Of a DNA stretch of 32,000 nucleotides, positions 6,599 through 22,490 are shown one piece after another. The translations under genes were made by a program, and so were the position numbers. Each line of letters starts with the position of its first letter. The stretch's first letter is position 1. The notes beneath the pieces are model-generated. The model saw only the letters and a list, made by a program, of their open reading frames with translations. It was not told the DNA's origin and did no database searches. This DNA is from Sinorhizobium meliloti (GTDB lineage Bacteria; Pseudomonadota; Alphaproteobacteria; Rhizobiales; Rhizobiaceae): assembly GCF_017876815.1 (NCBI RefSeq), contig NZ_JAGIOS010000002.1, positions 1,590,001 through 1,622,000 on the forward strand, read 5' to 3'.

Positions 6599-7597
6599 AT
6601 GCTGCGGTACATTCTCTGGCGCATCGCAGTCATGGTCCCGACGCTTCTCATCATCTCGGCGCTCGTGTTCGCCATCATCGAGCTGCCCCCCGGCGACTAT
6701 TTCGAAAGCTACATCGCCGAGATCAGGGCGCAGGGCGAAGGCGTCAATATGGAACAGATCGAGGCGCTGCGTAAGCAGTATGGCTTCGACCAGCCGCCGA
6801 TCCTGCGCTATGTCCACTGGGTCGCGGGGATGCTCCAGGGCGATTTCGGCTATTCCTTCGAATATGAATTGCCGGTGAGCGAGGTCGTCGGCGAGCGCCT
6901 GTGGCTCACGGTCCTGGTCTCCTTCGTCACCATCATCTTCACCTGGGTCATCGCCTTTCCGATTGGCCTCTATGCCGCCACGCACCAGTACAGCTGGGGC
7001 GATTACGGCCTGTCGCTGATCGGACTCATCGGCATCGCGATCCCGAATTTCATGCTGGCCCTCGTCCTCATGTATTTCGCCAATATCTGGTTCGGAACCT
7101 CGATCGGCCATTTGATGGACCAGAAGTATCTTTCCGAGCCGATGAGCTGGGAAAAGGCGAAGTCGATACTGGAGCATATCTGGATCCCGGTCATCATCGT
7201 CGGCGCGGCCGGTACTGCCGGCATGATCCGGCGCCTCAGGGCCAATCTGCTCGACGAGCTCCAGAAGCAATATGTCGTGACCGCCCGCGCCAAGGGGCTT
7301 TCGCCCACGCGGACCCTGCTCAAATATCCGCTGCGCATGGCGCTCAATTTCTTCATTTCGGACATCGGCTCGATCCTGCCGGCGATCATTTCGGGCGCGG
7401 AAATCACGGCAATCGTGCTGTCCCTCGAAACCACCGGACCGATGCTGATCAAGGCACTGCAGAGCCAGGACATGTATCTAGCCGGTTCGTTCCTGATGTT
7501 CCTCGCGTTCCTCACGGTGATCGGAGTGCTGGTTTCCGATCTGGCGCTCGCCGTCCTCGATCCTCGAATTCGTCTGCAAGGCAGGAGCACAAAGTGA
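6599..7597 (+). CDS. ABC importer permease (DppB/YejB-like)
   Basis: The ATG at 6599 lies 2 nt after the SBP stop and gives MLRYILWRIAVMVPTLLIISALVF, a typical DppB-type N-terminus. The EAA-loop region is YVVTARAKGLSPTRTLLKYPLRMAL. The upstream extension to 6389 overlaps the SBP gene and was not used. Confidence 0.88.
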   Translation: MLRYILWRIAVMVPTLLIISALVFAIIELPPGDYFESYIAEIRAQGEGVNMEQIEALRKQYGFDQPPILRYVHWVAGMLQGDFGYSFEYELPVSEVVGERLWLTVLVSFVTIIFTWVIAFPIGLYAATHQYSWGDYGLSLIGLIGIAIPNFMLALVLMYFANIWFGTSIGHLMDQKYLSEPMSWEKAKSILEHIWIPVIIVGAAGTAGMIRRLRANLLDELQKQYVVTARAKGLSPTRTLLKYPLRMALNFFISDIGSILPAIISGAEITAIVLSLETTGPMLIKALQSQDMYLAGSFLMFLAFLTVIGVLVSDLALAVLDPRIRLQGRSTK

Positions 7598-8769
7598 CGT
7601 CACCGATCCCGGCGCCCGGCGAGCCCCTTCCGCACTACGTTTCGACCGCGCCCTTCGACCCGTATTCCGTGGAGGTCATGACCGAGGAGCAGGTGCGGGT
7701 GAACCAGGCATCACAGCTGCGCCTGATGTGGTGGAAGTTCAAGCGCCACAAGGTCGCGCTCGCCTCGGGCATCTTCCTCGCGGTGCTCTACGGCATGATC
7801 CTGATCTGCGAGTTTCTCGCGCCCTACGACCTGCACACGCGCAATGTCGATTTCATCTATGCGCCGCCGCAGAGGATTCACTTTTTCCACGAGGGTGAAT
7901 TCGTCGGCCCCTTCGTCTACGGCCGGACGATGACGCTGGACATGGACACGCTGAAGCGCAACTACGCGGACGATACGTCGAAGGTCGAGCCGATCCGGTT
8001 CTTCTGCCGCGGCGACGACTACCGTTTTTGGGGTTTGTTCGAAAGCAATCTGCATCTGGTTTGCCCGGCGGAGGGAGGGCAGCTTTTCCTCCTGGGCACG
8101 GACCGTCTCGGCCGCGACGTGCTGTCGCGGATCATCTACGGCGCGCGGATATCGCTGACGATCGGACTTCTCGGCATCACCGTCAGCTTCGTTCTCGGCA
8201 TCGTCATCGGCGGGCTTGCCGGATATCATGGCGGGATCTTCGACCTTGTGGTCCAGAGACTGATCGAAGTCCTGCAGTCGATACCGAGCATTCCGCTCTG
8301 GCTTTCTCTGGCGGCGATCATGCCGGCGACATGGAGCCCGCTTCTCATCTATCTGGGTATAACGGTCATCCTAGGCCTTCTCGACTGGACCGGCCTTGCG
8401 CGCGCCGTGCGCTCGAAGCTGCTCGCGCTCAGGGAGGAAGACTATGTCCTTGCGGCGCAGCTGATGGGCGCCAGAAGCGGACGCATCATAGGGCGACACC
8501 TCGTTCCGGGCTTCATGTCCCATCTCATCGCAACGGCAACGATCTCCATACCCGGCATGATCCTCGGAGAAACGGCGTTGAGCTTCCTCGGCCTCGGCCT
8601 GCGCCCTCCGATAACCAGCTGGGGAATCCTGCTCACCGAGGCAAAGAGCGTCAGCGTCATTGCCTTCTATCCTTGGCTGCTTTTCCCCACGATCCCGGTC
8701 ATTCTTGTGATATTGGCGTTCAACTTCCTGGGAGACGGGTTGCGCGACGCCGCCGATCCCTACAAATAA
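7594..8769 (+). CDS. ABC importer permease (DppC/YejE-like) with a ~90-aa N-terminal extension
   Basis: The GTG at 7594 overlaps the previous stop (GTGA). Motifs seen: LGTDRLGRDVLSRIIYGARISL and EEDYVLAAQLMGARSGRIIGRHLVP. The upstream part of ORF 6901-8769 lies inside the preceding permease gene and is Arg/Pro-rich junk. Confidence 0.85.
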   Translation: MTSPIPAPGEPLPHYVSTAPFDPYSVEVMTEEQVRVNQASQLRLMWWKFKRHKVALASGIFLAVLYGMILICEFLAPYDLHTRNVDFIYAPPQRIHFFHEGEFVGPFVYGRTMTLDMDTLKRNYADDTSKVEPIRFFCRGDDYRFWGLFESNLHLVCPAEGGQLFLLGTDRLGRDVLSRIIYGARISLTIGLLGITVSFVLGIVIGGLAGYHGGIFDLVVQRLIEVLQSIPSIPLWLSLAAIMPATWSPLLIYLGITVILGLLDWTGLARAVRSKLLALREEDYVLAAQLMGARSGRIIGRHLVPGFMSHLIATATISIPGMILGETALSFLGLGLRPPITSWGILLTEAKSVSVIAFYPWLLFPTIPVILVILAFNFLGDGLRDAADPYK

Positions 8770-8848
8770 GCCCCGGTATCGCTGTTGGCTGCAAGCGATC
8801 GCTGCAATAGACTTCGACGTTTCTATCTTTGAGCGAAAGGTTTTTCGT

Positions 8849-10063
8849 ATGACACGGCGCTTCGAGGATGCCCGCATCCTCATGTACAGCCACGATACCT
8901 TCGGGCTCGGCCATCTCAGACGTTGTCGCGCCATCGCCCATGCACTGGTGGAAGATTACAGCGGACTGCAGATCCTGATCATCTCCGGTGCGACCATCGC
9001 CGGCGCCTTCGATTATCGCGCGCGCGTCGACTTCGTGAAGATCCCGAGCGTCATAAAGCTCCGAAACGGCGAATATACCTCGCTGGACCGTCACATCGAG
9101 TTGCACGAGACCTTGAAAATGCGGCAGTCGATCATCCGTTCGACAGCGGAAACCTTCCGGCCGGATATTTTCGTCGTCGACAAGGAGCCGATGGGTCTGC
9201 GCGGCGAGGTAGAGGATACGCTCGCCTACCTGAAGACGCACGGCACCAGGCTGGTGCTTGGTCTGAGGGAAATCATGGACGCGCCGTACCTCCTTGAAGA
9301 GGAATGGAAGCGACGCGACACGATGCGCAAGATCGAGCAGTTCTACGATTCGATCTGGGTCTACGGACCGCCGGACTTCTACGATCCGCTGGTCGGGCTC
9401 GACGTGCCCGTTGCCGTGCGCGACCGCATGAACTTCGTCGGATTCCTGCAAAGAAGCGTTCCCAACGACGCACTGCCCGGCCATAAGCCGGAAGGCGACT
9501 ACATACTGGTCACCACCGGCGGCGGTGGTGACGGAGCGGACCTCATCCATGACGTGATCCACGCCTATCAGGAGGATCCCGAACTCACGCATAACGCGCT
9601 CGTCGTCCTCGGCCCCTACATGCCGGCAAAGCAGCGCAACAAGCTGATCAAGAAGGGAAGCAAGATCCCATTCATCAAGATAATCGAGTTCGACAATCGC
9701 ATGGAGGAACTGATAGCCGGCGCCAGGGGCGTGGTGTCGATGGGCGGCTACAACACCTATTGCGAGATACTCTCTTTCGACAAGCCCGCCCTGATCGTGC
9801 CGCGCCTTCAGCCACGCGAAGAACAATTGATCCGCGCCCAGCGTGCCTCGGCACTCGGGCTCGTCGACATGCTGCTTCCTCAGGAAGCGGAGGAGCCGTT
9901 GCGCCTTGCTGCGGCCCTGAAGGCGCTGCCGCAGCGCGCGCCTCCGTCGCTCCGCGCCAATGGCCTGAGGCTGGAAGGCCTCGTCCACATATCCGAGATC
10001 GTCGGCGAATGGCTCGATCATAGATCGAAAGAGCATTTGGCCGTCGTGAAAAGATCGAACTGA
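8849..10063 (+). CDS. GT-B fold glycosyltransferase (COG4671-like / GT28 C-terminal-domain type), paralog A
   Basis: N-terminal ILMYSHDTFGLGHLRRCRAIAHAL (GxGH nucleotide-sugar GT-B motif), mid TTGGGGDG, and C-terminal SMGGYNTYCEILSFDKPALIVP...REEQLIRA (MurG/GT1-like donor-binding region). A GAAAGG Shine-Dalgarno sits 8 nt upstream. Confidence 0.75.
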   Translation: MTRRFEDARILMYSHDTFGLGHLRRCRAIAHALVEDYSGLQILIISGATIAGAFDYRARVDFVKIPSVIKLRNGEYTSLDRHIELHETLKMRQSIIRSTAETFRPDIFVVDKEPMGLRGEVEDTLAYLKTHGTRLVLGLREIMDAPYLLEEEWKRRDTMRKIEQFYDSIWVYGPPDFYDPLVGLDVPVAVRDRMNFVGFLQRSVPNDALPGHKPEGDYILVTTGGGGDGADLIHDVIHAYQEDPELTHNALVVLGPYMPAKQRNKLIKKGSKIPFIKIIEFDNRMEELIAGARGVVSMGGYNTYCEILSFDKPALIVPRLQPREEQLIRAQRASALGLVDMLLPQEAEEPLRLAAALKALPQRAPPSLRANGLRLEGLVHISEIVGEWLDHRSKEHLAVVKRSN

Positions 10064-10069
10064 AGACAC

Positions 10070-11317
10070 GTGTCGCCGAAACCGAAGATCGCCGTCGTGC
10101 TGAAGGGTTATCCACGCCTTTCGGAAACGTTTATCGCGCAGGAACTGCTGGGCCTCGAAAGAGCAGGGCATGAGCTCGTCCTCGTCGCCCTGCGCCGTCC
10201 GACCGACAGGAAACGCCATCCCGTCCATGACGAAATACGCGCGGCCGTCCATTACCTGCCTGAATATCTGCATGAGGAGCCCTTGCGCGTTTTCCGAGCG
10301 CTGGTGAAGACCGTCCCGAAGCCCGGCTTCCGGCGGGTGCTCGGGTCGTTCCTCCGAGACCTCGCGCGCGACGTTTCACGCAACCGCTTCCGCCGTCTTG
10401 GTCAGGCGCTGGTGCTCGTCACCGAATGGCCGGAAGACGCCGCGTGGCTGCATGCCCACTTCATTCACACGCCGGCCTCGGTAACGGACTATGCCAGCAT
10501 AATCACCGGCATACCCTGGACCTGCTCTGCCCATGCAAAGGACATCTGGACCTCTAAGGATTGGGAGCTTTCGGGCAAGCTCGACCGGGCCCGCTGGACG
10601 GTGACCTGCACCCGAAGCGGCTATGAGCACCTGCGGGACCTGTCGAAGGACCAGACCCGGGTCCATCTGAGCTATCACGGCCTCGATCTCGATCGTTTCC
10701 CGGCCTTCGAAGGCGAGCATTCCCGGCGCGACGGCGCGGATCCCGACGATCCGGTGCGCATCGTCAGCGTCGGGCGCGCCGTTCCCAAGAAGGGATATGA
10801 CGTCCTCCTGAAGGCGCTGTCGTTGTTGCCTGCGGATATCAACTGGCGCTTCGAGCATATCGGTGCGGGAGAGCTCACCGGCGGGCTCCAGGCGCTTGCC
10901 GCAAAGCTTGGCATCGAGGATCGCATCCGCTGGCACGGGGCACTCGATCAGAAGGATGTTTTGGGCCGCTACCGTGGGGCCGACATCTTCGCACTGGCGT
11001 GCCGGGTGGCGGCCGATGGTGACCGCGACGGCCTGCCGAATGTGCTCGTGGAGGCGTCGAGCCAGCGGCTTGCCTGTATATCGACCGCAGTCTCCGGCAT
11101 TCCTGAACTTCTTGAAGATGGCAAAAACGGCCTGGTGGTGCCGCCGGAAAGCCCGGAGCCTCTTGCCGCGGCACTGGAGCGGCTGATCCGCGACCCGGAG
11201 CTCCGCCGGCGGCTTGGCGCCGCGGGGGAACGGCGCGTGCGCAGCGAGTTCGACCACCACTCCAGCGTCCGTCAGCTGGTCGGGCTCTTCGAAAGCGAAT
11301 GGAGAAGAAGTCCTTGA
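10070..11317 (+). CDS. GT4-family (group 1, WcaL-like) glycosyltransferase
   Basis: GTG start. KIAVVLKGYPRLSETFIAQELLGLERAGHE is a WcaL-type N-terminus. The C-terminal GRAVPKKGYDVLLKAL...GLPNVLVEASSQRLACISTAVSGIPELLEDGKNGLVVPP carries the E-x7-E region. Confidence 0.85.
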   Translation: MSPKPKIAVVLKGYPRLSETFIAQELLGLERAGHELVLVALRRPTDRKRHPVHDEIRAAVHYLPEYLHEEPLRVFRALVKTVPKPGFRRVLGSFLRDLARDVSRNRFRRLGQALVLVTEWPEDAAWLHAHFIHTPASVTDYASIITGIPWTCSAHAKDIWTSKDWELSGKLDRARWTVTCTRSGYEHLRDLSKDQTRVHLSYHGLDLDRFPAFEGEHSRRDGADPDDPVRIVSVGRAVPKKGYDVLLKALSLLPADINWRFEHIGAGELTGGLQALAAKLGIEDRIRWHGALDQKDVLGRYRGADIFALACRVAADGDRDGLPNVLVEASSQRLACISTAVSGIPELLEDGKNGLVVPPESPEPLAAALERLIRDPELRRRLGAAGERRVRSEFDHHSSVRQLVGLFESEWRRSP

Positions 11318-12501
11318 GCAGGCCTCGCGTCTTTTTCTATGTGCAGCATCTTCTCGGTATCGGGCATCTGGCGCGCGCGAGCCGCATTGCCGGAGCGCTG
11401 GTCGAGCGGGATTTCGAGGTCACGATGGTGACCGGCGGCACGCCGGTGCCGGGCTTTCCGGGGGAAGGTGTGCAGACCGTCGCACTGCCGACGGTGACTG
11501 CCGGCGACAAGGGGTTTTCCGGGCTTGTCGACGGCGACGGAAACCCGGTCACGGCCGCTTTTCAGGAGCACCGACGGGATCTGCTCGTCGAGGCGTTCCG
11601 CCGCACGGAACCGGAGGTCGTCATCATCGAGGCCTTCCCCTTCGGGCGTCGGCAGATGCGGTTCGAACTGCTGCCGCTGCTCGCTGAAATTGCGGCGAGC
11701 AGCCGGCCGCCGCTCGTGACGACGTCGCTGCGCGACATTCTGCAGGAGAGGGTCAAGCCCGGGAGGGCCGAGGAGACTGTCGAACTCGTCAAGAACCATT
11801 TCGACCTCGTACTCGTTCACGGTGACCCCGGATTCGCCCGTATCGAGGAGACATTTCCCCTTGCCGACGAAGTCCGCGACAAGGTCGTCTATACGGGCCT
11901 CGTCGCCCCGCCGCCGCCAAATGAGGCGGCGGAGAAGTTCGACATCGTCGTTTCGGCGGGCGGAGGCGCGGTCGGCAGGGAGCTGATCGGCGCGGCGCTC
12001 GAGGCCGCGAAGCTTCTGCCGAATGCACTTCGCTGGTGTCTGATAACCGGCCCGAACCTGCCGCAGGCGGATTTCGACACATTCGCGGCCGCGGCTCCAG
12101 AGGGCGTCAGCCTCTTTCGTTTCCGGCGGGATTTCGGTGGCTTGCTCGGCGGTGCCCGCCTTTCCGTCTCGCAGGCCGGCTACAACACCGTGTGCGACAT
12201 TCTGCGTGCCGGATGCGCGTGCCTCCTCATCCCCTTTACCGCGGGTGGCGAGACCGAACAGAGCACGCGGGCGGCACGGCTCGAACAGCTCGATCTCGCC
12301 GGCGTGCTGCCGGAGGAGGGGATCACGCCTGAGCTTCTGGCCGCGAAGGTGAGCTTCATGCTTGCCCGGCCAAGACCGGCCATCCCGCCGCTCGACCTCG
12401 ACGGAGCCGCCGGGACGGCGAGGATCATCGGCGAGCGGCTTTCGTCGAGACAGTCCTTTCCTCACCCAGCTCCAGGTCTTAGACCGACCCGATCAGCATG
12501 A
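11299..12501 (+). CDS. GT-B fold glycosyltransferase (COG4671-like), paralog B
   Basis: VFFYVQHLLGIGHLARASRIAGAL, SAGGGAVG and SQAGYNTVCDILRAGCACLLIPF...ETEQSTRA align motif-for-motif with the protein at 8849-10063. It overlaps the GT4 gene by 19 nt. Confidence 0.75.
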   Translation: MEKKSLSRPRVFFYVQHLLGIGHLARASRIAGALVERDFEVTMVTGGTPVPGFPGEGVQTVALPTVTAGDKGFSGLVDGDGNPVTAAFQEHRRDLLVEAFRRTEPEVVIIEAFPFGRRQMRFELLPLLAEIAASSRPPLVTTSLRDILQERVKPGRAEETVELVKNHFDLVLVHGDPGFARIEETFPLADEVRDKVVYTGLVAPPPPNEAAEKFDIVVSAGGGAVGRELIGAALEAAKLLPNALRWCLITGPNLPQADFDTFAAAAPEGVSLFRFRRDFGGLLGGARLSVSQAGYNTVCDILRAGCACLLIPFTAGGETEQSTRAARLEQLDLAGVLPEEGITPELLAAKVSFMLARPRPAIPPLDLDGAAGTARIIGERLSSRQSFPHPAPGLRPTRSA

Positions 12502-13153
12502 AGCGCGTGTATCTTTTTGTCGGCAGCGCTCCCGCGAAGTCGATCCGCGCGAGACGCGCCTGCGCTTGAAATTCTTCAAGCGACCTGACGCAGCTTATGT
12601 GGGTGGGTTCGCTGAAATAATCGTTCGATTGCAGGAGGACGCGCGTGCCGGGCGAAAGCAGGTCCAGCCAGTTCCGCAGTTCGCCGATGTGTTCGCAGCT
12701 CGTGTTGATCAGCAGATCCGCATTCAGGGCGCGATAGTCGAGCGTGTGCATATCGGCCGTCATCGCATGGAATCTGTCGCCGAAGGCTGCGTTGAGCGTG
12801 CGCGCCACCGGCTCAACCGCGGGATCGATGTCACAACTCACGGCGAATTCGATGTCGAAGCGCGAATCTTCGAGCAGCATGGCCGACAGAACGCCGTACC
12901 AGCCGCCGAGCACGATGATCCGACGACAGTCTGCGCCGATGCTCTCGAAGAGCTTGTCGCGGGCCCACATCTTGCAGTCGACCTGCTTGTGGTTGAAGGC
13001 ATTGGCAATGTTGGCTTGCGGATGCTTCGCGATGACCCTGGCTATGCCGCCGACGAGCCTGCTGCCGGAATAGGCAGCCAGCCCCCGGGCAAGGTCATGG
13101 GCGTTTTCGCGCCAATCTTCGAGAAGGCGGGGAGAGTGGCTGGCATGCGTCAT
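12479..13153 (-). CDS. Class I SAM-dependent methyltransferase-like protein
   Basis: Rossmann MTase motif order: IIVLGGWYGVLS (motif I), AVSCDIDP (acidic post-I), MTADMHTLDY, DLLINTSCEHI. It reads far more protein-like than the overlapping plus-strand ORF 12362-13234. It is convergent with GT paralog B and overlaps it by 23 nt. Confidence 0.6.
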   Translation of the reverse strand: MTHASHSPRLLEDWRENAHDLARGLAAYSGSRLVGGIARVIAKHPQANIANAFNHKQVDCKMWARDKLFESIGADCRRIIVLGGWYGVLSAMLLEDSRFDIEFAVSCDIDPAVEPVARTLNAAFGDRFHAMTADMHTLDYRALNADLLINTSCEHIGELRNWLDLLSPGTRVLLQSNDYFSEPTHISCVRSLEEFQAQARLARIDFAGALPTKRYTRFMLIGSV

Positions 13154-13263
13154 GCGGCTGTTGTAAGCTCACGGTCAAGTGAGCGCAAGGCGCCGGAGGT
13201 GGGCCGCAGGAGTGGAGGCAAGAGGCCTGCGTAGATGAGGCGGTACTGCATATCAGTCGGAGG

Positions 13264-13293
13264 CTTGACATGGCGCATCGCTCTGCTCTCATG
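13264..13293 (+). promoter_or_regulatory. Candidate promoter for the ABC exporter gene (CTTGAC-N18-CTCATG)
   Basis: The -35 matches the rhizobial CTTGAC consensus exactly. The -10 matches CTATAT at 4 of 6 positions. It lies in the divergent region between the minus-strand methyltransferase and the exporter. Confidence 0.25.
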
Positions 13294-13428
13294 CCGGGTA
13301 GTCACGATTTCGTGGAGGTAGCGCAGGCCCATTGACGATCAGGCGGACCGGCACCAAGTGCGGCGCTGTAGTCCGCCGGCAGAACAGCCGTGCGATCCCG
13401 AATTTCAGATAGGTCTCTTTACCGGCAC

Positions 13429-16140
13429 ATGGAACCACGTCTTTCCCGCTACATCTGGACTCACACCCGCAAGCAGCAACTCTGGATATTGCTGGTCGTG
13501 GCGCTGTCGATGGTTCCCTATTTCCTGTCCTTCGATCTGCCGAAGCAGATCGTCAACGGACCGATTCAGGGTGCAGGTTTCGACGGCCCCGAGGCGACCC
13601 AACCGTTCCTGCCGATTTCCTTCGACCTGCCGTTCTTCGGTGAGGTCAACCTCTTCTCGGGTTTCGATCTCGGCAGGGAAGGCATGCTGCTGGCCTTGAG
13701 TCTGGTGTTCCTGCTGCTCGTGATCATCAACGGGCTCTTCAAGTTCTATATCAATACCTACAAGGGCCGGCTCGGCGAGCGGCTTCTGCGGCGAATCCGC
13801 TTCGAGCTCGTCGACCGGGTCTTGCGCTTCCCCCCCGGCTATCTCAAGCGCGTGAAGCCGGCCGAAATCTCGACCATGATCAAGGACGAGGTGGAGCCGA
13901 TGGGCGGCTTCACCGGAGACGCCTTCGTGCAGCCCGCCCTTCTCGGTGGGCAGGCGCTGACGGCGCTGATCTTCATCCTCCTCCAGAGCTTCTGGTTGGG
14001 TATCATCGCAGCCTCGATCGTCGCCGTTCAGGCGGTCATTATCCCGCGCATGCGCAGGCGACTGCTGGTGCTCGGCCGCGAGCGTCAGTTGACGGCGCGT
14101 GAGCTGTCGGGCCGCGTCAGCGAGATCGTCGACGGCATCGGCACGATCCGCGCCCACGATACCTCCAATTTCGAGCGGGCCGACATTGCCGCGCGGCTCG
14201 GCCGGATATTCAAGATCCGCTACGACCTCTATCAGTGGAAGTTTCTGGTCAAGTTCCTGAACAACTTCCTGGCCCAGGTGACGCCGTTCCTGTTCTATTC
14301 GATCGGCGGATATTTTGCGCTTCAGGGCCGGCTCGACATCGGCCAGCTTGTCGCGGTCATCGGCGCCTACAAGGATCTTCCGGGCCCCTTGAAGGAATTG
14401 ATCGATTGGGACCAGGCGCGCCAGGATGTGCAGGTCAAATATGCCCAGGTTGTCGAACAGTTCAGCGTCGAACCTCTGATCGACCCCAAGGTGCAGGCAA
14501 TCTCCGTCGACCCGGCAACGCCGCTGACGGGAGCGCTGGCTGCCGTCAACCTTTCGGTGGCCGACGACGGTGGCTCGAAAGTCGTGGAGCATGTCTCGCT
14601 GCAGATCCAGCCCGGCGAGACGGTCGCGATTACCGGCGGCACGTCCGGGGGTGGCGAGGCGCTGGCCGAGGCTTTCGGCCGGCTGACCTGGCCCGCAACC
14701 GGCCGGATCGTCATAGGCGACGCCGATATACACGATTTGCCCGAATCGGTGGTGGGCAGGCGAATATCCTACGCCTCCTCCGACGTCTTCGCCTTCCAGG
14801 GCAGCCTCGGCGACAATCTGCTCTACGGGCTCAAGCATGCTCCGTTGACCGAGGTCGTCTATGAGGGCGACAGGGAAGCCCACCGCAGGTGGGAGCTTGT
14901 GGAGGCCAAGCTCGCCGGCAATCCGCATTACGATCTGAACAGCGACTGGATCGATTATCAGGCCGCGGGCGCGACCGGGCCGGACGACCTCTTCGCGAAG
15001 ATCAGGGCCGTGCTGGACGTCGTTCTGTTGAGCAATGACGTCCTGGCTCTTGCTGTCCGCTCGACCATCCATCCGACCGAGCACGTGGCTTTCGCCGGCG
15101 AGATCGTGGCGATGCGCAGCGCGCTTCGCCAGCGGCTCGAGGCCGAGAAGCTCAGCGATCTCGTCGTCTTCTTCGAACCGGGCTCCTACAATGTCGAGGC
15201 AACGGTCGGGGAGAACCTGCTCTTCGGCACGGTCACCGACAGCAACCGCTGGGAGACGGCGCTCGAGAACCATCCTTTCTTCAAGACCGTTTTAAAGCGG
15301 GCAGGCCTGCACGAGACCTTCTACGAGATGGGGCTCGAAATCGCCGAGAACGTCGTGGAACTGTTCCGCGACTTGCCGCCCGACCACCCGTTCTTCCAGC
15401 AGCTCACCTTCATGACGGCCGAGGAAATCCCTGCCTACGAAGCGCTTCTTCAGAAGGTAAGGGGAAAGCCGCTCGAGGAGGTGTCCGAGGATGATGCCAT
15501 CAGGATCATCCGCCTTTGCTTCGGCTATATCGAGCCGCGGCATCGTTTCGGTCTCCTGACGGACGAGCTCATGCAGAAGATCGTCGAGGCGCGGCGGGAG
15601 TTCAGCGACGGCCTCCCGGCCGATCTCGTCGGCATCATCGAGCATTACCAACCGGACCGCTACATGGCCTCGGCGACAATCCTGGACAACGTGCTCTTCG
15701 GCCGCATCGGGCACAAGCACACGGATGGCTCCGAGCGGATACGTGCGATCGTGCGCGATCTGTTCGAGTCGCTCGGGCTCTATAACAAGGTGCTCGTGTT
15801 CGGGCTGGATTTCGACGTCGGCGCCGGCGGCAAGCGGTTGACGTCCGGCCAGCGCCAGAAGCTCAATCTGGCGCGTGCCCTGATCCGGGTCTCGGATTTC
15901 TACGTGTTCAACCAGCCGCTTCTGGCGCTCGACCAGCGCACGCAGGACCAGATCACCCGCAAAGCCTTCGCCTTCTTGCGGGACGGCGAGCGCAAGCCCG
16001 CCATATTGTGGGTCCTTGCCAACCAGGACCTGGCGGAACTCTTCGACCGCGTCGCGCATTTCGAAAACGGGCGGTTGGCGCGCGACGAACCGGTGGAAAC
16101 GCATGCAAGAGACAGCGACTACAAGGAACTGGCATCTTGA
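13429..16140 (+). CDS. Fused TMD-NBD ABC exporter-type protein (type I exporter fold) with degenerate, expanded NBD
   Basis: N-terminal ABC_membrane-like six-helix region (LWILLVVALSMVPYFLSF, MLLALSLVFLLLVIINGLF, LTALIFILLQSFWLGIIAASIVAV and others). NBD motifs are present but substituted: P-loop GGTSGGGEA, signature LTSGQRQKL, Walker B FYVFNQPLLALD, H-loop VLANQ. The ATG at 13429 is preferred; an in-frame GTG at 13390 is possible. Confidence 0.8.
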   Translation: MEPRLSRYIWTHTRKQQLWILLVVALSMVPYFLSFDLPKQIVNGPIQGAGFDGPEATQPFLPISFDLPFFGEVNLFSGFDLGREGMLLALSLVFLLLVIINGLFKFYINTYKGRLGERLLRRIRFELVDRVLRFPPGYLKRVKPAEISTMIKDEVEPMGGFTGDAFVQPALLGGQALTALIFILLQSFWLGIIAASIVAVQAVIIPRMRRRLLVLGRERQLTARELSGRVSEIVDGIGTIRAHDTSNFERADIAARLGRIFKIRYDLYQWKFLVKFLNNFLAQVTPFLFYSIGGYFALQGRLDIGQLVAVIGAYKDLPGPLKELIDWDQARQDVQVKYAQVVEQFSVEPLIDPKVQAISVDPATPLTGALAAVNLSVADDGGSKVVEHVSLQIQPGETVAITGGTSGGGEALAEAFGRLTWPATGRIVIGDADIHDLPESVVGRRISYASSDVFAFQGSLGDNLLYGLKHAPLTEVVYEGDREAHRRWELVEAKLAGNPHYDLNSDWIDYQAAGATGPDDLFAKIRAVLDVVLLSNDVLALAVRSTIHPTEHVAFAGEIVAMRSALRQRLEAEKLSDLVVFFEPGSYNVEATVGENLLFGTVTDSNRWETALENHPFFKTVLKRAGLHETFYEMGLEIAENVVELFRDLPPDHPFFQQLTFMTAEEIPAYEALLQKVRGKPLEEVSEDDAIRIIRLCFGYIEPRHRFGLLTDELMQKIVEARREFSDGLPADLVGIIEHYQPDRYMASATILDNVLFGRIGHKHTDGSERIRAIVRDLFESLGLYNKVLVFGLDFDVGAGGKRLTSGQRQKLNLARALIRVSDFYVFNQPLLALDQRTQDQITRKAFAFLRDGERKPAILWVLANQDLAELFDRVAHFENGRLARDEPVETHARDSDYKELAS

Positions 16141-16236
16141 TGTAATATTGTTGTCAGGAGGCAAGCATATGTTCCCGCCGGCACGGGATAGGACCTGTTT
16201 GCACCAACCGCGACGCATTCGGAGAACCGGACTGTT

Positions 16237-16701
16237 ATGCTCCTAAAAGATGAAGTGGAAATGCTGCGCCGGATAACGCTGTTTTCCGGACTTCCGCCTG
16301 CCAAGCTCAAGCTTCTGGCTTTCACCTCCGACCGGGTGATGTACAGCATGGGAGAAGATCTGTTTCATCAGGGGGATATCGGCGACGCGGCCTATGTGAT
16401 CCTTTCGGGTAATGCGGATGTGCTCGTTTCGACGCCGAACGGACAGCTGAAAGTCGCCGAAGTGGAGCAGAATTCGATCGTCGGCGAGATCGCCATCCTC
16501 TGCAACACGCCGCGTACGGCAACGGTCAAGACGACCACCCCACTCGAAGCTCTGCGGATCCGGAAGGATGATTTCCTCAAACTGTTGGCTGATTTCCCGG
16601 AGATGGCAGTCGAGATCATGCGGGTGCTGGCCGACCGCCTCAGCCAGACGACTTCCGAGTTGACGGAGGCGCGCAGCCGCGCCCAGAGGGCAGAGGCCTG
16701 A
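16237..16701 (+). CDS. Stand-alone cyclic-nucleotide-binding (CAP/PKA-type cNMP) domain protein, no output domain
   Basis: FSGLPPAKLKLLA...FHQGDIGDAAYVILSGNADVL...IVGEIAILCNTPRTATVKTTTPLEALRI is a textbook CNB beta-barrel with a phosphate-binding cassette (GE...R[TS]A). At 154 aa there is no room for an HTH or other effector domain. Confidence 0.85.
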   Translation: MLLKDEVEMLRRITLFSGLPPAKLKLLAFTSDRVMYSMGEDLFHQGDIGDAAYVILSGNADVLVSTPNGQLKVAEVEQNSIVGEIAILCNTPRTATVKTTTPLEALRIRKDDFLKLLADFPEMAVEIMRVLADRLSQTTSELTEARSRAQRAEA

Positions 16702-16735
16702 GCCTCGTTCACCCGTTTCCCCCTCCGCGACGTCC

Positions 16736-16775
16736 CCGGAAAAACCGGTTTCCACTTCGCTTGAAAATGCTCTAG
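16736..16775 (+). repeat. Short rhizobial-type intergenic element ending in GCTCTAG (copy 1)
   Basis: CCGGAAAAACCGGTTTCCACTTCGCTTGAAAATGCTCTAG lies between the cNMP-binding and FkbM genes. It shares a CCGG..AACCG..CACTT..GCTCTAG skeleton with the reverse complement of 29480-29518. Confidence 0.35.
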
Positions 16776-16784
16776 AGAAGCGCG

Positions 16785-17534
16785 ATGCGCGCGATAACCT
16801 ATTTCCAGAGAACCGTTTATTTCCCAGACAAGCCGGAAAAGGCGCGCTTCTTCAGCCGGTTGCAGTCCGGCCAGTGGGAGCCCGGTACTTTTCGCAACAT
16901 CGCGCGCTTCGTCGACGGCAAAACGACCTATATCGACATTGGCGGCTGGATCGGGGTCACGCCCTACTGGGCGGCACAGGCTGCCGATAATGTCATTGTC
17001 GTCGAACCTGATCCGGTCTGTTTCGGCATTCTCACCGAAATGAAAGGCGCAAACACCGGGGAAGTGAAACTCGTCAATGCGGCCCTTTCGCAAGACGAAC
17101 GTCTCGTTCTCAATTCCGTGGGCGGCGGCTTCGGGAGTTCGGAAACGTCGGCGCTGATCGCCGACGACACCGGCATGACGATCGAGGCCAAGACGATCAC
17201 AATTCCCGAGCTTCAGGCGATGGCGAGGACCGAACGTCTCTGCCTCAAGATCGATATCGAAGGCTACGAATACAAGGTTCTCGACCAGTTTCGGGCGATC
17301 GACCGGAAGAGGACCGCCGGCGTGCTGCTCGCGGTGCACCCGCAGATCCTGGCCGCTTCGCTCTCCGGGCCTGCCGTTCTGCGCGTAATCAGGACTGCGT
17401 CGGCAACCTTCCGCCTGATACGAAGCCTGCGTGGCTTTCGATTGGAGAACCCGTCGGCGCTCTGGGGAGCGATCCGCAAATCGGTTTCCAAAGGCGAGAT
17501 CAGGGGCTTCGACCTGCTCTTCGTTGCGCGTTGA
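16785..17534 (+). CDS. FkbM-family methyltransferase
   Basis: YIDIGGWIGVTPYWAAQAADNVIVVEPDP (SAM motif I/post-I) and CLKIDIEGYEYKVL (the FkbM IDIEGxE signature). Confidence 0.8.
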   Translation: MRAITYFQRTVYFPDKPEKARFFSRLQSGQWEPGTFRNIARFVDGKTTYIDIGGWIGVTPYWAAQAADNVIVVEPDPVCFGILTEMKGANTGEVKLVNAALSQDERLVLNSVGGGFGSSETSALIADDTGMTIEAKTITIPELQAMARTERLCLKIDIEGYEYKVLDQFRAIDRKRTAGVLLAVHPQILAASLSGPAVLRVIRTASATFRLIRSLRGFRLENPSALWGAIRKSVSKGEIRGFDLLFVAR

Positions 17535-17609
17535 GGACAACGCCCGGGTACGCTTCATCCACAGGTGAGCGATCTCTGCGGCCAGTTATTAGGTTCGACT
17601 CAAAAAAGA

Positions 17610-17637
17610 TTCGACAGGCACGATCGGCTGATATATC
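17610..17637 (+). promoter_or_regulatory. Candidate sigma-70-type promoter of the LacI-regulated operon (TTCGAC-N16-TATATC)
   Basis: Read directly from the sequence. TTCGAC also occurs as a direct repeat 12 nt upstream (17594-17599). Confidence 0.3.
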
Positions 17638-17642
17638 GCAGC

Positions 17643-17654
17643 TTAATCGTTTAA
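17643..17654. promoter_or_regulatory. Candidate LacI-family operator (CG-centred palindrome TTAATCGTTTAA)
   Basis: Five of six half-site pairs are complementary around a central CG, the usual LacI/PurR operator geometry. It lies 28 nt upstream of the regulator start and just downstream of a candidate -10. Confidence 0.35.
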
Positions 17655-17681
17655 TCATCCGATGCGGCGGAAGATAAGGCC

Positions 17682-18752
17682 TTGGCACGTTCCGGACCCA
17701 AACTGACGAGGATAGCCACGGCACTTGGCGTCTCCGCGGCGACGGTCTCCAACGCGCTCTCCGGCAAAGGGCGCGTCTCCGCCGAGCTTGCCGAGAAAAT
17801 CCGCTCGGTTGCGGCCGAGATCGGATATGTTCCGAGCCAGGCGGGAAGGGCGCTCAGGACCGGCAAGAGCGCGGTCATCGGGCTGGTTCTGCCTGACATC
17901 AGCAATCCGCTCTTTCCCCAGATCGCACAGGCGATCGAGTTTGCGGCATCTTCTGCCGGTTACGGCGTGCTGATCGCAGACTCCCGCGGCGACGTCGCCG
18001 TCCAGACGAGGGCGATCGAACGCCTCATCGAGCGGGGCGTCGACGGCATGGTCATCGTGCCGCGGCGGGGAACCCGCATTGCCGATGTCGGTTGCCCGGT
18101 CGCTGTGGTGGACACGCCCTCGACACCCGGCAACACGGTGGCGGCGGACCATTGGGACGGCGGAAGGCAGATCGCCGAGCATCTCGTCGGACTCGGTCAC
18201 AGGCGCTTGCTGATCCTAGGCAACAATCCCGCCTCCAACGTGCAGAACGACCGGATCGGCGGGCTTCGCTCGGCCATGCGCGAAGGCGCGCAGGCGGAGA
18301 CGCTGTGGATCGAACGGCTGGAGCAGGTACACGGCAAGGGCTGCTCGCTCGGGCTCGCCGGGAAGGTGGCGGAAGGCGTGACGGCCTTTGCGGCCGTCTC
18401 CGACCTGCAGGCGCTGCGCGCGCTCACGGAACTGCAACGGGCCGGCATCCATGTCCCGGAACAGGCGAGCGTCACCGGGTTCGACGACCTGATCTGGTCA
18501 CCGGTGGTGACGCCGGCGCTGACCACGATTCGGATGGATATGGCGCGCATCGCGACGCTCGCGGTCGAGGCGCTGGTGCAGGCGATCGGCGCCGGCGAAG
18601 CCGAATTTCCATCCCACGGCACGCCCGTTGCCGCCACCATTTCGAAAGTGCCCATGCAACTCGTCGTCCGCCAGTCCACGGCGACGCCACCATCAAACGT
18701 GCAGCCAGCCCCCAACGTAAAGCCACCCAGCGAAGGAGAACCGCAGTCATGA
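17682..18752 (+). CDS. LacI/PurR-family transcriptional regulator
   Basis: N-terminal HTH LTRIATALGVSAATVSNALSGKGRVSAELAEKIRSVAAEIGYVPSQAGRALRTGKS, followed by a periplasmic-binding-protein-like core. TTG start. The stop overlaps the next ATG (ATGA at 18749-18752). Confidence 0.85.
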   Translation: MARSGPKLTRIATALGVSAATVSNALSGKGRVSAELAEKIRSVAAEIGYVPSQAGRALRTGKSAVIGLVLPDISNPLFPQIAQAIEFAASSAGYGVLIADSRGDVAVQTRAIERLIERGVDGMVIVPRRGTRIADVGCPVAVVDTPSTPGNTVAADHWDGGRQIAEHLVGLGHRRLLILGNNPASNVQNDRIGGLRSAMREGAQAETLWIERLEQVHGKGCSLGLAGKVAEGVTAFAAVSDLQALRALTELQRAGIHVPEQASVTGFDDLIWSPVVTPALTTIRMDMARIATLAVEALVQAIGAGEAEFPSHGTPVAATISKVPMQLVVRQSTATPPSNVQPAPNVKPPSEGEPQS

Positions 18753-19771
18753 AGAAAATCCTCATCGCCTCGACCGCGCTCCTCTTGATCGGCGCCCATG
18801 GCGCATCCGCTCAGGAGAAGACCCTGACCATCTCCGTCTACGGCTTCGCCCAGGACGCGTTCAAGGAGCTGGTCTATGATTCATTCGAAGCCAAGTGCGG
18901 CTGCAAGCTCGTCGTCGAAACGGGCAACAGCGTCGAACGCCTTGCCAAGATGGAGGCAAACAAGGCCAATCCGGTCGTGGACATGGCGGTGGTTTCCATG
19001 GCGGACGCGCTTTCCGCTACAAGGGCCGGCCTGATCGACAAGATCGATACTTCGAAGCTCAGCAATTTCGACAAGCTCTACGACATCGCCAAGGACCCGA
19101 ACGGCGACGGCATGAGCATCGGCTACACTTTCTACGCCACCTCGATCGTCTATCGTTCCGACAAGGTGGAAGTCACGTCCTGGGCCGATCTACTCGGCGA
19201 CAAGCTAGCCGGCCATGTGGCTCTCCCGAACGTCACGACCAACCAGGGTCCGCCGACGCTCTACATGATCGGTGAAGCGCTCGGCCAGAATACGCCGGAC
19301 CTCAAGGCCGCGATCGCCGCAGTCGGCGAAAAGAAGGACGATATCGTCACCTTCTACGTCAAATCCTCGCAGCTCGTGCAGTTAATGCAGCAGGAAGAAA
19401 TCTGGGCGGCGCCGATCGGCCGGTTCTCCTGGGAAGGTTTCACCAAGATGGATCTGCCGATCAAGTGGGCGACCCCGAAGGAGGGCCAGACCGGCGGCAT
19501 GAACGTCATGGTTCTGGCCAAGGGCTCGAAGAACCAGGATCTCGCGCTTCAGTTCATGGACTTCTGGTTGTCGACGGAAATCCAGACGGCGCTCGCCGAA
19601 AAGCTGGTCGACAGCCCCGCCAACAAGGAAGTGAAGGTCTCGCCGGAGATCGCCGAGAACCTCACCTACGGCGAAGAAACGGTCAAGAACCTGAAGCTCA
19701 TCCCGTCGGCAGTGGCACTCGACAATCGGGAAGCGTGGCTTTCCGAGTGGAACGCCAAGGTCGGCCAGTAA
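18749..19771 (+). CDS. PotD/PotF-type (spermidine/putrescine-family fold) ABC substrate-binding protein
   Basis: Signal peptide MKKILIASTALLLIGAHGASAQ. Size (~340 aa) and sequence style fit the PotD-like SBP family. The upstream part of ORF 18092-19771 lies inside the LacI gene and was rejected. Confidence 0.85.
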   Translation: MKKILIASTALLLIGAHGASAQEKTLTISVYGFAQDAFKELVYDSFEAKCGCKLVVETGNSVERLAKMEANKANPVVDMAVVSMADALSATRAGLIDKIDTSKLSNFDKLYDIAKDPNGDGMSIGYTFYATSIVYRSDKVEVTSWADLLGDKLAGHVALPNVTTNQGPPTLYMIGEALGQNTPDLKAAIAAVGEKKDDIVTFYVKSSQLVQLMQQEEIWAAPIGRFSWEGFTKMDLPIKWATPKEGQTGGMNVMVLAKGSKNQDLALQFMDFWLSTEIQTALAEKLVDSPANKEVKVSPEIAENLTYGEETVKNLKLIPSAVALDNREAWLSEWNAKVGQ

Positions 19772-19859
19772 GAGCCTGGCTCTTGCCTTGCGCGACGCCA
19801 GATCCTGCCGGCGTCGCGCCACGTATCCAACGGCGGCACTGCCGCGGAAAGGCGTAGAG

Positions 19860-20687
19860 ATGTTCCACAACCGGGCCGAGGCGCTGGCACTTGCCTTGCC
19901 GGCGGCCGTGTTCGCCGCCGTCGTCTTTCTGGCGCCGGTTGTCATCCTGCTTGCCGAAGGCTTCCGCAATGTCGATGGCTGGTCGGTATCCGCCTATACC
20001 GGGTTCCTATCCGATCCGCTCAACCGGACGGTGTTCCTGCGCACGCTGCGGCTCGGCGCGGCGGTAACCGTGGTCGCTGCCGTCATCGGCTATGCCGCTG
20101 CCTTCGCCATCGTCAACCTGCCGCCGAAAGGCAAGGGCCGGATGATCGGCCTCGTGGTGCTGCCGCTGATGATATCGCCGGTTGCGCGCACCTATGCGTG
20201 GATCGTCATTCTGGGGAGGACCGGGATCGTCAACCAGGCATTGACGAGCGTCGGCCTGACCGACGAGCCGGTGCGCTTCCTGTTCACGGAGACGGCGGTC
20301 TTCGTCGGGCTCCTGCAGCTCTTTCTGCCGCTGATGATCCTGGCTCTGATCAGTGCGCTCGAAAACATGCCGAAGGACGCGATCCCCGCAGCGCGGGTAC
20401 TCGGCGCCAATTGGTTTCAGGTCTTCTGGAAGGTCATTTTGCCGCTCACCAGGGAAGGTCTTGTGATCGGCGGAACGCTCGTCTTCACCGGCTCCCTGAC
20501 AGCCTATATCACCCCGGCGATCCTCGGGGGCTCCAAGGTCCTGATGCTGGAAACGCTTCTTTATCAGCGTGTGACCGTCGCCAATGATTTCGTCTCCGCA
20601 AGCGTCATCGCCTTCATCCTGATCGTCATGAGCTTCGCGGCCAATCTTCTCTTGAAGCGGCTCGCGACCGCGAGGAGCAAGCGATGA
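19860..20687 (+). CDS. ABC importer permease (PotB-like)
   Basis: The ATG at 19860 is preceded by GGAAAGG. The protein is a multi-TM protein with the EAA-type loop LENMPKDAIPAARVLGANWFQVFWKVILPL. Confidence 0.85.
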   Translation: MFHNRAEALALALPAAVFAAVVFLAPVVILLAEGFRNVDGWSVSAYTGFLSDPLNRTVFLRTLRLGAAVTVVAAVIGYAAAFAIVNLPPKGKGRMIGLVVLPLMISPVARTYAWIVILGRTGIVNQALTSVGLTDEPVRFLFTETAVFVGLLQLFLPLMILALISALENMPKDAIPAARVLGANWFQVFWKVILPLTREGLVIGGTLVFTGSLTAYITPAILGGSKVLMLETLLYQRVTVANDFVSASVIAFILIVMSFAANLLLKRLATARSKR

Positions 20688-22484: not shown

Positions 22485-22490
22485 TCCGCA

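Follow-up and report, generated by a model that had tools for sequence, protein, structure and literature searches.

A conserved glycan-gene module of Sinorhizobium meliloti pairs a predicted ATPase-dead ABC exporter-fold protein with a cyclic-nucleotide-binding protein

Why should a cluster of glycosyltransferase (GT) genes on the pSymB replicon of Sinorhizobium meliloti contain a cyclic-nucleotide receptor? To address this question, we analyzed a window of 32,000 nucleotides (assembly GCF_017876815.1, contig NZ_JAGIOS010000002.1, positions 1,590,001 to 1,622,000; all coordinates below are those of the window unless another sequence is named) and, within it, positions 8849-17534. An earlier reading of the letters alone (the original prediction) had proposed here an orphan unit of seven genes making a short methylated glycan under cyclic-nucleotide control. 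We find that these seven genes form the 3′ half of a larger conserved module, SMb21252-SMb21271 (~20 genes), in which an ATP-binding cassette (ABC) protein of exporter fold with a predicted dead ATPase—hereafter ABC*—is coupled to a stand-alone cyclic-nucleotide-binding (CNB) protein. Of the identity of the locus and of this coupling we are highly confident. The stretch 8849-17534 is 100% identical at the DNA level to pSymB of S. meliloti strains and corresponds to positions 837144-845829 of Sm1021 pSymB (NC_003078.1; 99.6% identity), where its genes are SMb21264 (redA), SMb21265 (redB), SMb21266, SMb21267, SMb21268/69, SMb21270, and SMb21271. Six-frame open reading frames (ORFs) and profile searches bore out the coordinates of all seven predicted genes, and the searches confirmed the families of the two GT-B paralogs, the GT4, the FkbM protein, and the 154-residue CNB-only protein. 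The features of this stretch are as follows:

8849-10063, plus strand: RedA (SMb21264), a GT-B enzyme of the COG4671 type with a GT28-like C-terminal domain (PF04101, 45.5 bits)
10070-11317, plus strand: RedB (SMb21265), a GT4 glycosyltransferase (PF00534, E 4e-35)
11299-12501, plus strand: SMb21266, a GT-B paralog of RedA (PF04101)
12479-13153, minus strand: SMb21267, a putative class I S-adenosylmethionine (SAM) methyltransferase, accessory (name from the Prokaryotic Genome Annotation Pipeline, PGAP)
13429-16140, plus strand: ABC* (SMb21268 + SMb21269 in Sm1021), a 903-residue protein of type IV ABC exporter fold with a predicted dead nucleotide-binding domain (NBD) (PF00664, E 1.7e-19, and PF00005 in two pieces)
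13830-13836, plus strand: C7 homopolymer in the ABC* gene, codons F134-P135-P136 (TTC CCC CCC), from strain comparison
14836-15693, plus strand: NBD insert of ~286 residues with two extra copies of a "Q-loop strand + ENLLFG + helices" segment (hhalign)
16237-16701, plus strand: SMb21270, a stand-alone CNB protein of 154 residues (PF00027 only, E 1.4e-20)
16785-17534, plus strand: SMb21271, an FkbM-family methyltransferase, lineage-specific accessory (TIGR01444, 90.4 bits vs. cutoff 37.7)

The locus turned out to be no orphan. Travin et al. 2023 (PMC10128002) subjected Sm1021 to transposon sequencing (Tn-seq) under phazolicin and found insertions depleted, at log2 fold changes (log2FC) of -3.5 to -5.4, in SMb21252, SMb21253, SMb21256, SMb21259, SMb21264, SMb21265, SMb21266, SMb21269, and SMb21271; independently made smb21252 and smb21265 mutants were phazolicin hypersensitive. 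These authors named the uncharacterised product of the nine genes the phazolicin-protecting polysaccharide (PPP) and suggested that it depends on TolC (PMC10128002). Their cluster, smb21252-smb21271, comprises the same genes at the same coordinates as ours: five of the nine PPP genes lie within 8849-17534, and the Tn-seq coordinates for smb21264, smb21265, smb21266, smb21269, and smb21271 agree with our mapping on NC_003078.1 (837144-838358, 838365-839612, 839609-840796, an end at 844435, and 845080-845829, respectively). Gene by gene, the log2FC under phazolicin was -4.8 for RedA, -5.2 for RedB, -3.8 for SMb21266, -4.0 to -5.4 for ABC*, and about -4 for SMb21271, while SMb21267 is absent from the list of affected genes. 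Orthologs are cited in the same paper (PMC10128002) as having turned up in a pyocyanin-sensitivity screen of A. tumefaciens, and in-planta symbiosis Tn-seq hits, also as cited there, suggest a role in symbiosis. In a transcriptome study of Myxococcus attack on S. meliloti, seven of the nine PPP genes were up; its tables show SMb21270 to be expressed and to rise together with SMb21264-66 and SMb21271. In a supplementary table on Myxococcus predation, SMb21270 and SMb21271 (16237-17534) are also grouped with Pho-regulon genes such as phoC, with PhoB cited (Yuan et al. 2006), a grouping that hints at regulation of the CNB and FkbM genes by phosphate starvation.

The gene names redA and redB have been in use since 1999, and UniRef carries the name RedA for the SMb21264 product; our literature search found no functional study on redA or redB, no paper on the PPP glycan or its mechanism, and none on CNB-coupled degenerate ABC exporters. 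The PPP locus and its phenotype are already known, and the synteny, the dead ATPase, the triplicated segment, the CNB partner and its fusion, and the Clr-independent link to cyclic mononucleotides (cNMPs) are new.

How far does ABC* depart from a working exporter? Its ORF spans 13390-16140 (916 residues), and the start conserved among homologs is Met14, giving the gene at 13429-16140; homologs in Sinorhizobium, Ensifer, Rhizobium, Pararhizobium, Mesorhizobium, and Phyllobacterium are 896-932 residues long, nearly all of them 900-905. An AlphaFold2 (AF2) model (predicted local distance difference test [pLDDT] 80.6, predicted template-modeling score [pTM] 0.76) has six long transmembrane (TM) helices and a tiny periplasmic loop, and Foldseek matches it to MsbA, TmrAB, TM287/288, and PCAT1 (target-normalized TM-score [TMt] about 0.6). 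Scores against NCBIfam equivalog models all lie under the cutoffs: 146 bits vs. 602 for MsbA, 94 vs. 733 for the NdvA type (PRK13657), 42.5 vs. 1000 for PglK, and 114 vs. 725 for HepA. The degeneracy seen in the original prediction is real, as the Walker A Lys, the Walker B Asp-Glu, the Q-loop Gln, and the H-loop His are all missing. Walker A reads GGTSGGGEAL, with Glu in place of Lys, and Walker B reads YVFNQP, with Asn-Gln in place of Asp-Glu; the Q-loop (YASSD) is without Gln and the H-loop (WVLAN) without His. The signature, LTSGQ, is near-canonical. These substitutions are conserved across genera. Of 195 members of the wider family, 34 retain the Walker A Lys and 21 the Walker B Asp, and at no aligned H-loop column does His rank with the five most frequent residues. 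Judged by its motifs, ABC* is catalytically dead—that is, predicted to be unable to hydrolyze ATP. The exporter proposed originally therefore stands as a fold and is doubtful as a role, given the predicted lack of ATP hydrolysis and the occurrence of the family outside glycan clusters as well.

A second peculiarity is the insert, which sits between the Q-loop and the signature motif of the NBD and adds two copies to a segment that occurs there once already. The three segments are homologous by profile-profile comparison (hhalign probabilities 90.7, 98.4, and 94.2%; E 1e-6 to 8e-15) and share the pattern "Q-loop strand + [DE]N[LV]L[FY]G + helices." In the AF2 model the insert is mostly helical, with a pLDDT of 85-94. 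When searched alone against 1.84 billion representatives, it retrieved 802 clusters at E ≤ 1e-3, of which 506 reached E ≤ 1e-10, and in every near-full-length match (about 820-1200 residues) among the 150 listed it starts at residue ~440-520. We considered whether the 916-residue ORF might be a pseudogene or an insertion artifact and rejected this, as homologs are 64-89% identical across genera, the insert is conserved, and it folds confidently. The C7 run in the gene does vary, with C8 in the Sm1021 reference and C6 in ml21, both frameshifting; in all other species the run is interrupted. The split annotation as SMb21268/SMb21269 arises because Sm1021 has C8 where other strains have C7. The intact C7 form is present in at least 1000 contigs and the frameshifted forms in a handful, and C6 and C8 may be sequencing errors or rare slippage variants.

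What is the small protein encoded next to ABC*? SMb21270 matches PF00027 at residues 35-118 (73.5 bits vs. cutoff 27.5) as its sole domain, and profile searches found no helix-turn-helix (HTH). PGAP labels it a "Crp/Fnr family transcriptional regulator," a name that is misleading because the protein lacks an HTH; its score against CRP is 45.5 bits vs. a cutoff of 266. Its predicted ligand site, the phosphate-binding cassette GEIAILCNTPRTATV (pattern G-E-x-A-x(n)-R-[ST]-A), is complete and can be aligned with those of PKA RI and PKG; the closest solved relatives are the CNB domains of PKA-R and PKG. The cassette has the "RTA" form, which we take to be typical of PKG.

Elsewhere, the two proteins are one. 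AZL_RS29885 of Azospirillum sp. B510 (1047 residues) comprises the transmembrane domain (TMD), a dead NBD with the insert, and a C-terminal PF00027 domain at residues 911-996, and its gene neighbors are an Opp-type importer, two GTs with GT28C-like domains, two GT4s, and a deacetylase; a histidine phosphatase is also encoded in this cluster. Fused ABC*-CNB proteins of about 1000-1050 residues are widespread, in Rhodospirillales, several gammaproteobacterial lineages, and metagenomes. The order of domains in the fusion is the order of genes in rhizobia, which implies that ABC* and the CNB protein work as one unit. The original prediction had placed a cNMP receptor in the locus, and constant adjacency, fusion to ABC* elsewhere, and the co-located cyclase and metallo-β-lactamase-fold (MBL) hydrolase all argue that SMb21270 belongs with ABC*. 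The same scaffold appears in other combinations. The metagenomic proteins P0331-P0333 (L088 10001-13537), each about 1180 residues long, are triple fusions that comprise an ABC TMD with dead NBD, a CNB domain, and a GGDEF domain, by their domain content a link of cyclic mononucleotide sensing to cyclic di-GMP (c-di-GMP) synthesis on an ABC-fold scaffold. On a Rhodospirillales contig (L086 10001-15006), where no glycosyltransferases are close by, a fused ABC*-CNB gene is preceded by a globin-coupled cyclase and overlaps the CHASE2-guanylate cyclase gene that follows it.

Is the arrangement of the genes conserved beyond S. meliloti? Our synteny scan, with one genome per species, recovered 80 loci in other species, mostly Rhizobiaceae and Phyllobacteriaceae; some neighbor counts were read within 10-kb flanks of the loci. 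The CNB gene lies directly 3′ of the ABC* gene in 80 of 80 loci, with a gap of 31-270 bp, and in 76 of the 77 loci whose flanks reach far enough, redA-redB-SMb21266 precede ABC* in the same orientation. Importer genes fall within the flanks of 73 of the 80 loci, a SAM methyltransferase gene is present in 48, and a cyclase gene accompanies the ABC-CNB pair, within the 10-kb flanks, in 21. The coherence claimed for the seven genes thus holds—they belong to a syntenic module, and chance adjacency is rejected by the 80 loci. As a functional unit they are incomplete, since the module also includes SMb21252-SMb21256, a cyclase, a lyase, and an importer of oligosaccharide type. Immediately after the CNB gene, Mesorhizobium, Pararhizobium, and Phyllobacterium carry homologs of SMb21254 (MBL hydrolase), SMb21253 (deacetylase), and SMb21252 (GT4); in Mesorhizobium-type loci SMb21255 (DUF3095) comes next and then, where present, SMb21256 (nucleoside diphosphate [NDP]-sugar dehydrogenase), the cyclase, the lyase, and the importer. 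In R. etli the cyclase lies upstream of the importer. The cyclase and the exported lyase noticed upstream on the same strand (172-1521 and 1518-2498) hold up as well, and the features between the start of the window and redA are as follows:

172-1521, plus strand: SMb21258, a predicted class III nucleotide cyclase, cytoplasmic, with a ~210-residue N-terminal domain of unassigned function (PF00211, 25.1 bits vs. cutoff 21.9)
1518-2498, plus strand: SMb21259, a predicted exported β-jelly-roll polysaccharide lyase (PF14099, E 4.9e-39, 134.8 bits vs. 29.9)
2807-4699, plus strand: SMb21260, the fused double ATPase of an Opp/Yej-type ABC importer (two PF00005 + oligo_HPY)
4696-6597, plus strand: SMb21261, the family-5 periplasmic binding protein of the importer (PF00496)
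6599-7597, plus strand: SMb21262, importer permease (BPD_transp_1/OppC_N matches; limits from the ml21 annotation)
7594-8769, plus strand: SMb21263, importer permease (BPD_transp_1/OppC_N matches; limits from the ml21 annotation)

Which glycan would such a module make? RedA is syntenic across genera at 68-96% identity. SMb21266 is its paralog (27% identity, E 6e-27), and both carry a G[LI]GH motif; neither reaches the MurG equivalog TIGR01133 (18.2 bits for RedA and 34.1 for SMb21266, cutoff 250), with which they have the generic GT28 C-terminal domain alone in common. A PDB sequence search returned nothing informative for RedA, for the lyase SMb21259, or for the DUF3095 protein. Beyond 8849-17534, SMb21252 (GT4) and SMb21253 (deacetylase) have overlapping genes, and the best named matches of SMb21252, all below cutoff, include BshA, MshA, and GlcNAc-PG synthase; the pair suggests a de-N-acetylated hexosamine. 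SMb21256, a PPP gene, is a COG0677-type NDP-sugar dehydrogenase of the UDP-ManNAc/GlcNAc dehydrogenase type. The short methylated oligosaccharide of the original prediction would depend on lineage-specific genes, because the two methyltransferases are not core. SMb21271 is by family a clear FkbM methyltransferase, also above the PF05050 cutoff (27.8 bits vs. 22.7), and an FkbM gene is present in 21 of 80 loci, with a close adjacent homolog in Sinorhizobium/Ensifer only. For the opposite-strand SMb21267 the ORF stands and the methyltransferase family is weakly supported, as there is no Pfam match and the best NCBIfam match has an E value of 0.005; we also rejected its homology to the Methyltransf_17 gene beside the Azospirillum ABC gene (E 0.37).

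SMb21259 has a Sec signal peptide that ends at TYA/QS. Of the PDB folds, its AF2 model (pLDDT 86.6) best matches 2ZZJ, the PL20 glucuronan lyase of Trichoderma reesei (E 7e-12, TMt 0.72), with heparinase I and alginate lyases next in rank; at 13% identity to 2ZZJ it is a predicted lyase, and its Tn-seq log2FC under phazolicin is -4.5. The closest solved relatives of SMb21261 are 5IPW and SPH1118, a pectin/oligogalacturonide binder of Sphingomonas A1 (E 9e-68), then an α-galactoside binder, rather than peptide binders; by this kinship the importer is probably an acidic-oligosaccharide rather than a peptide transporter. The dehydrogenase SMb21256, the lyase fold, and the kinship of SMb21261 together point to a glycan containing uronic acid that would be cut outside the cytoplasm and partly recycled. 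We hold the case for a uronate glycan with lyase and importer turnover to be evenly balanced.

One lead is that the glycan is the β-1,4-glucuronan of S. meliloti or a derivative, which would make the locus a candidate for its genes: strain M5N1CS makes this polymer and a glucuronan lyase, and genes for both were never found. The likeness lies in the PL20 fold match of SMb21259. The differences are that the module lacks an O-acetyltransferase and that four GT-B enzymes exceed the need of a homopolymer. The published S. meliloti glucuronan lyase is, reportedly, about 20 kDa, compared with about 33 kDa for SMb21259.

Where could a cyclic nucleotide come from, and does its effect pass through the transcription factor Clr? 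Aligned to Cya2 (2W01) and bPAC, SMb21258 has both metal-binding Asp residues, the Asn, and the Arg; its specificity pair is Ser/Ser, unlike the cAMP pairs (K/D, K/T) and the cGMP pair (E/G). The nucleotide made and sensed by SMb21258 and SMb21270 could, on these residues, be something other than cAMP. The MBL protein SMb21254 bears a weak resemblance to RNase Z, and its score against a cNMP-phosphodiesterase model falls far short of the cutoff (36.7 bits vs. 400), so that its assignment as a cNMP phosphodiesterase is a guess. Travin et al. already noted a cAMP link: cyaA insertions were among the strongest under phazolicin (-2.6, -3.9, and -5.05), a putative 3′,5′-cNMP phosphodiesterase also scored, and the cyaA effect was ascribed to Clr-regulated polysaccharide genes (PMC10128002). 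In the same data, insertions in clr (SMc02175) were neutral (+0.33, +0.18, and 0; adjusted p = 1) (PMC10128002). A search of the window for the Clr box (HGTYHCNNNNGRWACW) gave 0 matches, and the Clr regulon paper lists the neighboring nodP2-smb21248 cluster and not the module genes. These observations hint that cNMP control of the locus bypasses Clr. A promoter and terminator scan of 8000-18000 found none beyond shuffled background.

Could the export machinery lie nearby? As originally noted for the seven genes, neither the window nor the cross-genus module contains a priming transferase, Wzx/Wzy, Wzm/Wzt, outer-membrane polysaccharide export/polysaccharide copolymerase (OPX/PCP) proteins, or a GT2 synthase, and the module lacks both a polymerase and a chain-length regulator. 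Adjoining it in S. meliloti, the Clr-activated nodP2-smb21248 cluster encodes a sugar transferase, ExoF, Wzz, and a member of the O-antigen-ligase family. We considered whether this Wzx/Wzy cluster might supply the absent priming and export functions and rejected it, since in none of the other genera do its genes accompany the module; it is a separate system. Other neighbors are recorded here as side observations. In S. meliloti ml21, the DUF3095 protein SMb21255 (PF11294, E 7e-130) and the MBL-fold hydrolase SMb21254 lie at L083 3053-5314; DUF3095 travels with the module in Mesorhizobium-type loci, and the MBL hydrolase does so also in Pararhizobium and Phyllobacterium. Between the GT4 genes SMb21250 and SMb21252 lies SMb21251 (L083 7243-9363), a 706-residue MscS-family mechanosensitive channel, of which a homolog (43%) occurs near the module in one Rhizobium locus (L051). 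Directly downstream of the module in the window lies a purine/nucleoside salvage cluster that has nothing to do with it (17682-25192), with genes for a regulator of the LacI family, an ABC importer of sugar/nucleoside type, a nucleoside hydrolase, and an adenine deaminase. Its LacI gene is not in the PLSDB gene table of ml21, where it may be annotated as a pseudogene.

How might these parts work together? We favor the reading that the PPP locus makes an envelope glycan protecting against phazolicin, with a membrane step controlled by cNMP through the ATPase-dead ABC*. Our confidence in it stands at the midpoint, a grade that blends over the locus identity and coupling, the turnover of a uronate glycan, and a cNMP-gated conduit. 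Four cytoplasmic GT-B enzymes (RedA, RedB, SMb21266, and SMb21252) would assemble the glycan, into which the COG0677 NDP-sugar dehydrogenase would feed uronic acid; the deacetylase would modify it, and the methyltransferases would tailor it in Sinorhizobium. ABC* would perform the membrane step or control it, and the switch would be cNMP binding to SMb21270 docked on the dead NBD, not ATP hydrolysis. The cNMP could come from the neighboring cyclase and/or CyaA and be removed, maybe, by the neighboring MBL hydrolase. As the glycan would be anionic, its efflux could be driven by the membrane potential. Outside the cytoplasm the exported PL20-like lyase would trim the glycan, and the SPH1118-related importer would retake the fragments. 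Such control would act after translation, without the transcription factor Clr. A cNMP-gated, ATP-independent conduit is, as a part of this scheme, possible and rather doubtful; the specific picture in which cNMP instead of ATP closes the dead NBDs and opens a path for the anionic glycan, with the membrane potential as the driving force, is unlikely.

Several points weigh against this favored reading. An envelope glycan is the predicted product, none having been isolated so far, and its structure and the gating mechanism are what we infer. To our knowledge, no lipid-carrier priming enzyme is known for the PPP pathway. The R. etli cluster is without a lyase. Because the specificity pair of SMb21258 is Ser/Ser, its nucleotide specificity cannot be read from the sequence. 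The listed phazolicin-fitness genes do not include SMb21270, SMb21258, or SMb21254 (the MBL gene); for SMb21270, loss without a detected phenotype could mean that the protein is an inhibitor, that it is redundant, or that the gene is too small to score. Members of the wider ABC*-CNB family are also found where there is no GT cluster, sometimes fused to GGDEF or beside a CHASE2 cyclase, and such contexts are a better fit for a general signaling module than for a dedicated glycan exporter. A partner with a working NBD encoded elsewhere would also count against it; we have no evidence that supports one.

The last but one of these points leads to the main rival, in which ABC*-CNB is not a conduit at all; it would be a membrane signaling device whose TMD senses a lipid or glycan intermediate and, together with cNMP, regulates the GTs or the cyclase, while the glycan exits by an unlinked route, e.g., a TolC-dependent one or a housekeeping flippase. 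In its favor are an ATPase dead in nearly every member sampled (n = 195), the members that are GGDEF-fused, lie beside a CHASE2 cyclase, or have no nearby GT genes, and the TolC dependence suggested for PPP (PMC10128002). However, insertions in ABC* are as strong in phenotype as those in the GT genes, the six-helix type IV exporter fold is retained with high confidence, and the tiny periplasmic loop offers no obvious sensor domain; we consider this rival doubtful, though to be taken seriously. Alternatively, ABC* might be the degenerate half of a heterodimeric exporter, in which LTSGQ completes one active site with a canonical half encoded elsewhere and the CNB protein modulates the pair. TM287/288 and TmrAB, which have one degenerate site, are among its best structural matches, and the signature motif and the D-loop are fairly well kept in rhizobial members. 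Yet the signature is poorly conserved across the family (L-P/S/T-x-x-Q/A), neither the 80 loci nor the Azospirillum cluster contain a second gene for an ABC exporter, and no other exporter with the same phenotype was reported in the phazolicin Tn-seq, all of which makes a heterodimer improbable.

The nature of the product and the level of control can also be read differently. The product might be a small glycoconjugate or glycolipid, e.g., a GlcN-lipid made in the PIG-A/PIG-L or MshA/MshB manner, to which a few sugars are added before it is flipped by the MsbA-like protein. The overlapping SMb21252/SMb21253 pair with the BshA, MshA, and GlcNAc-PG synthase matches of its GT4, the MurG/MGD-like domains of RedA and SMb21266, the lack of a polymerase or chain-length regulator, and the histidine phosphatase of the Azospirillum cluster are compatible with this. 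The family matches all lie far below equivalog cutoffs, though, and an exported lyase with an oligosaccharide-type importer argues for an extracytoplasmic uronate polymer, so that a small glycolipid seems fairly unlikely to us. Purely transcriptional cNMP control, by SMb21270 as a Crp/Fnr regulator or through Clr, is suggested by the PGAP name and by the published attribution of the cyaA effect to Clr-regulated polysaccharide genes (PMC10128002). This explanation is largely refuted and very improbable: SMb21270 is a CNB domain alone, in 154 residues without an HTH, and is fused to the ABC protein elsewhere, and clr insertions are neutral, the window has no Clr box, and the Clr regulon list is without module genes.

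How does the favored arrangement compare with known systems? The published description of the PPP cluster, which was defined by Tn-seq phenotype only, contains nothing on the dead ATPase, on the CNB partner or its fusion, on the logic of importer and lyase, or on the synteny (PMC10128002). MsbA, PglK, and NdvA/ChvA, the best sequence and fold matches of ABC*, share its six-helix TMD fused to an NBD; ABC* differs from them in lacking the catalytic residues, in the ~286-residue triplication in its NBD, and in an obligate CNB partner or fused CNB domain. NdvA exports cyclic glucan, and rhizobia thus use this fold for glycan export. CFTR and SUR likewise use an ABC exporter fold for gating or regulation, and CFTR is ultimately under cAMP control. 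However, CFTR keeps one active ATP site and is phosphorylated by PKA on its R domain, whereas in ABC* both sites are predicted to be dead and the CNB protein is proposed to bind directly; the comparison is an analogy, with homology limited to the ABC fold. In the c-di-GMP systems BcsA-PilZ, Alg44, PelD, and BgsA (the last from S. meliloti), a second-messenger receptor is physically coupled to a membrane step of exopolysaccharide production, and PelD, like ABC*, reuses a degenerate enzyme domain as a regulatory module. ABC*-CNB differs in its messenger (a cyclic mononucleotide), its receptor (CNB), its partner (an ABC fold), and the lack of a GT2 synthase. Finally, the CNB-associated bacteriocin ABC exporters (TIGR03896, in TIGR03796/7 context) also combine a small CNB protein with a type IV ABC exporter, although SMb21270 scores far under the TIGR03896 cutoff (E 1e-12, 48 bits vs. 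161). Those exporters are expected to be active ATPases for peptides; here the ATPase is predicted to be dead and the context is one of glycan genes.

What would this mean for S. meliloti and its relatives? Rhizobial surface glycans decide symbiosis and antimicrobial-peptide resistance, and their known post-translational control is via c-di-GMP. A dead ATPase, a cAMP/cGMP receptor welded to it, and a cyaA effect that bypasses Clr point to a cyclic-mononucleotide switch on envelope machinery. S. meliloti has more than two dozen cyclases and few known receptors, and the locus offers a candidate output for one of these cyclases. More broadly, ABC* defines a broad, uncharacterised family of predicted catalytically dead ABC exporters with a triplicated Q-loop segment. 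If the unlikely picture of an ATP-independent, cNMP-gated conduit were true, it would be the first case of cAMP/cGMP gating polysaccharide export post-translationally, and the family—about 800 clusters at 50% identity—would be a widespread one of ABC exporters turned ligand-gated devices.

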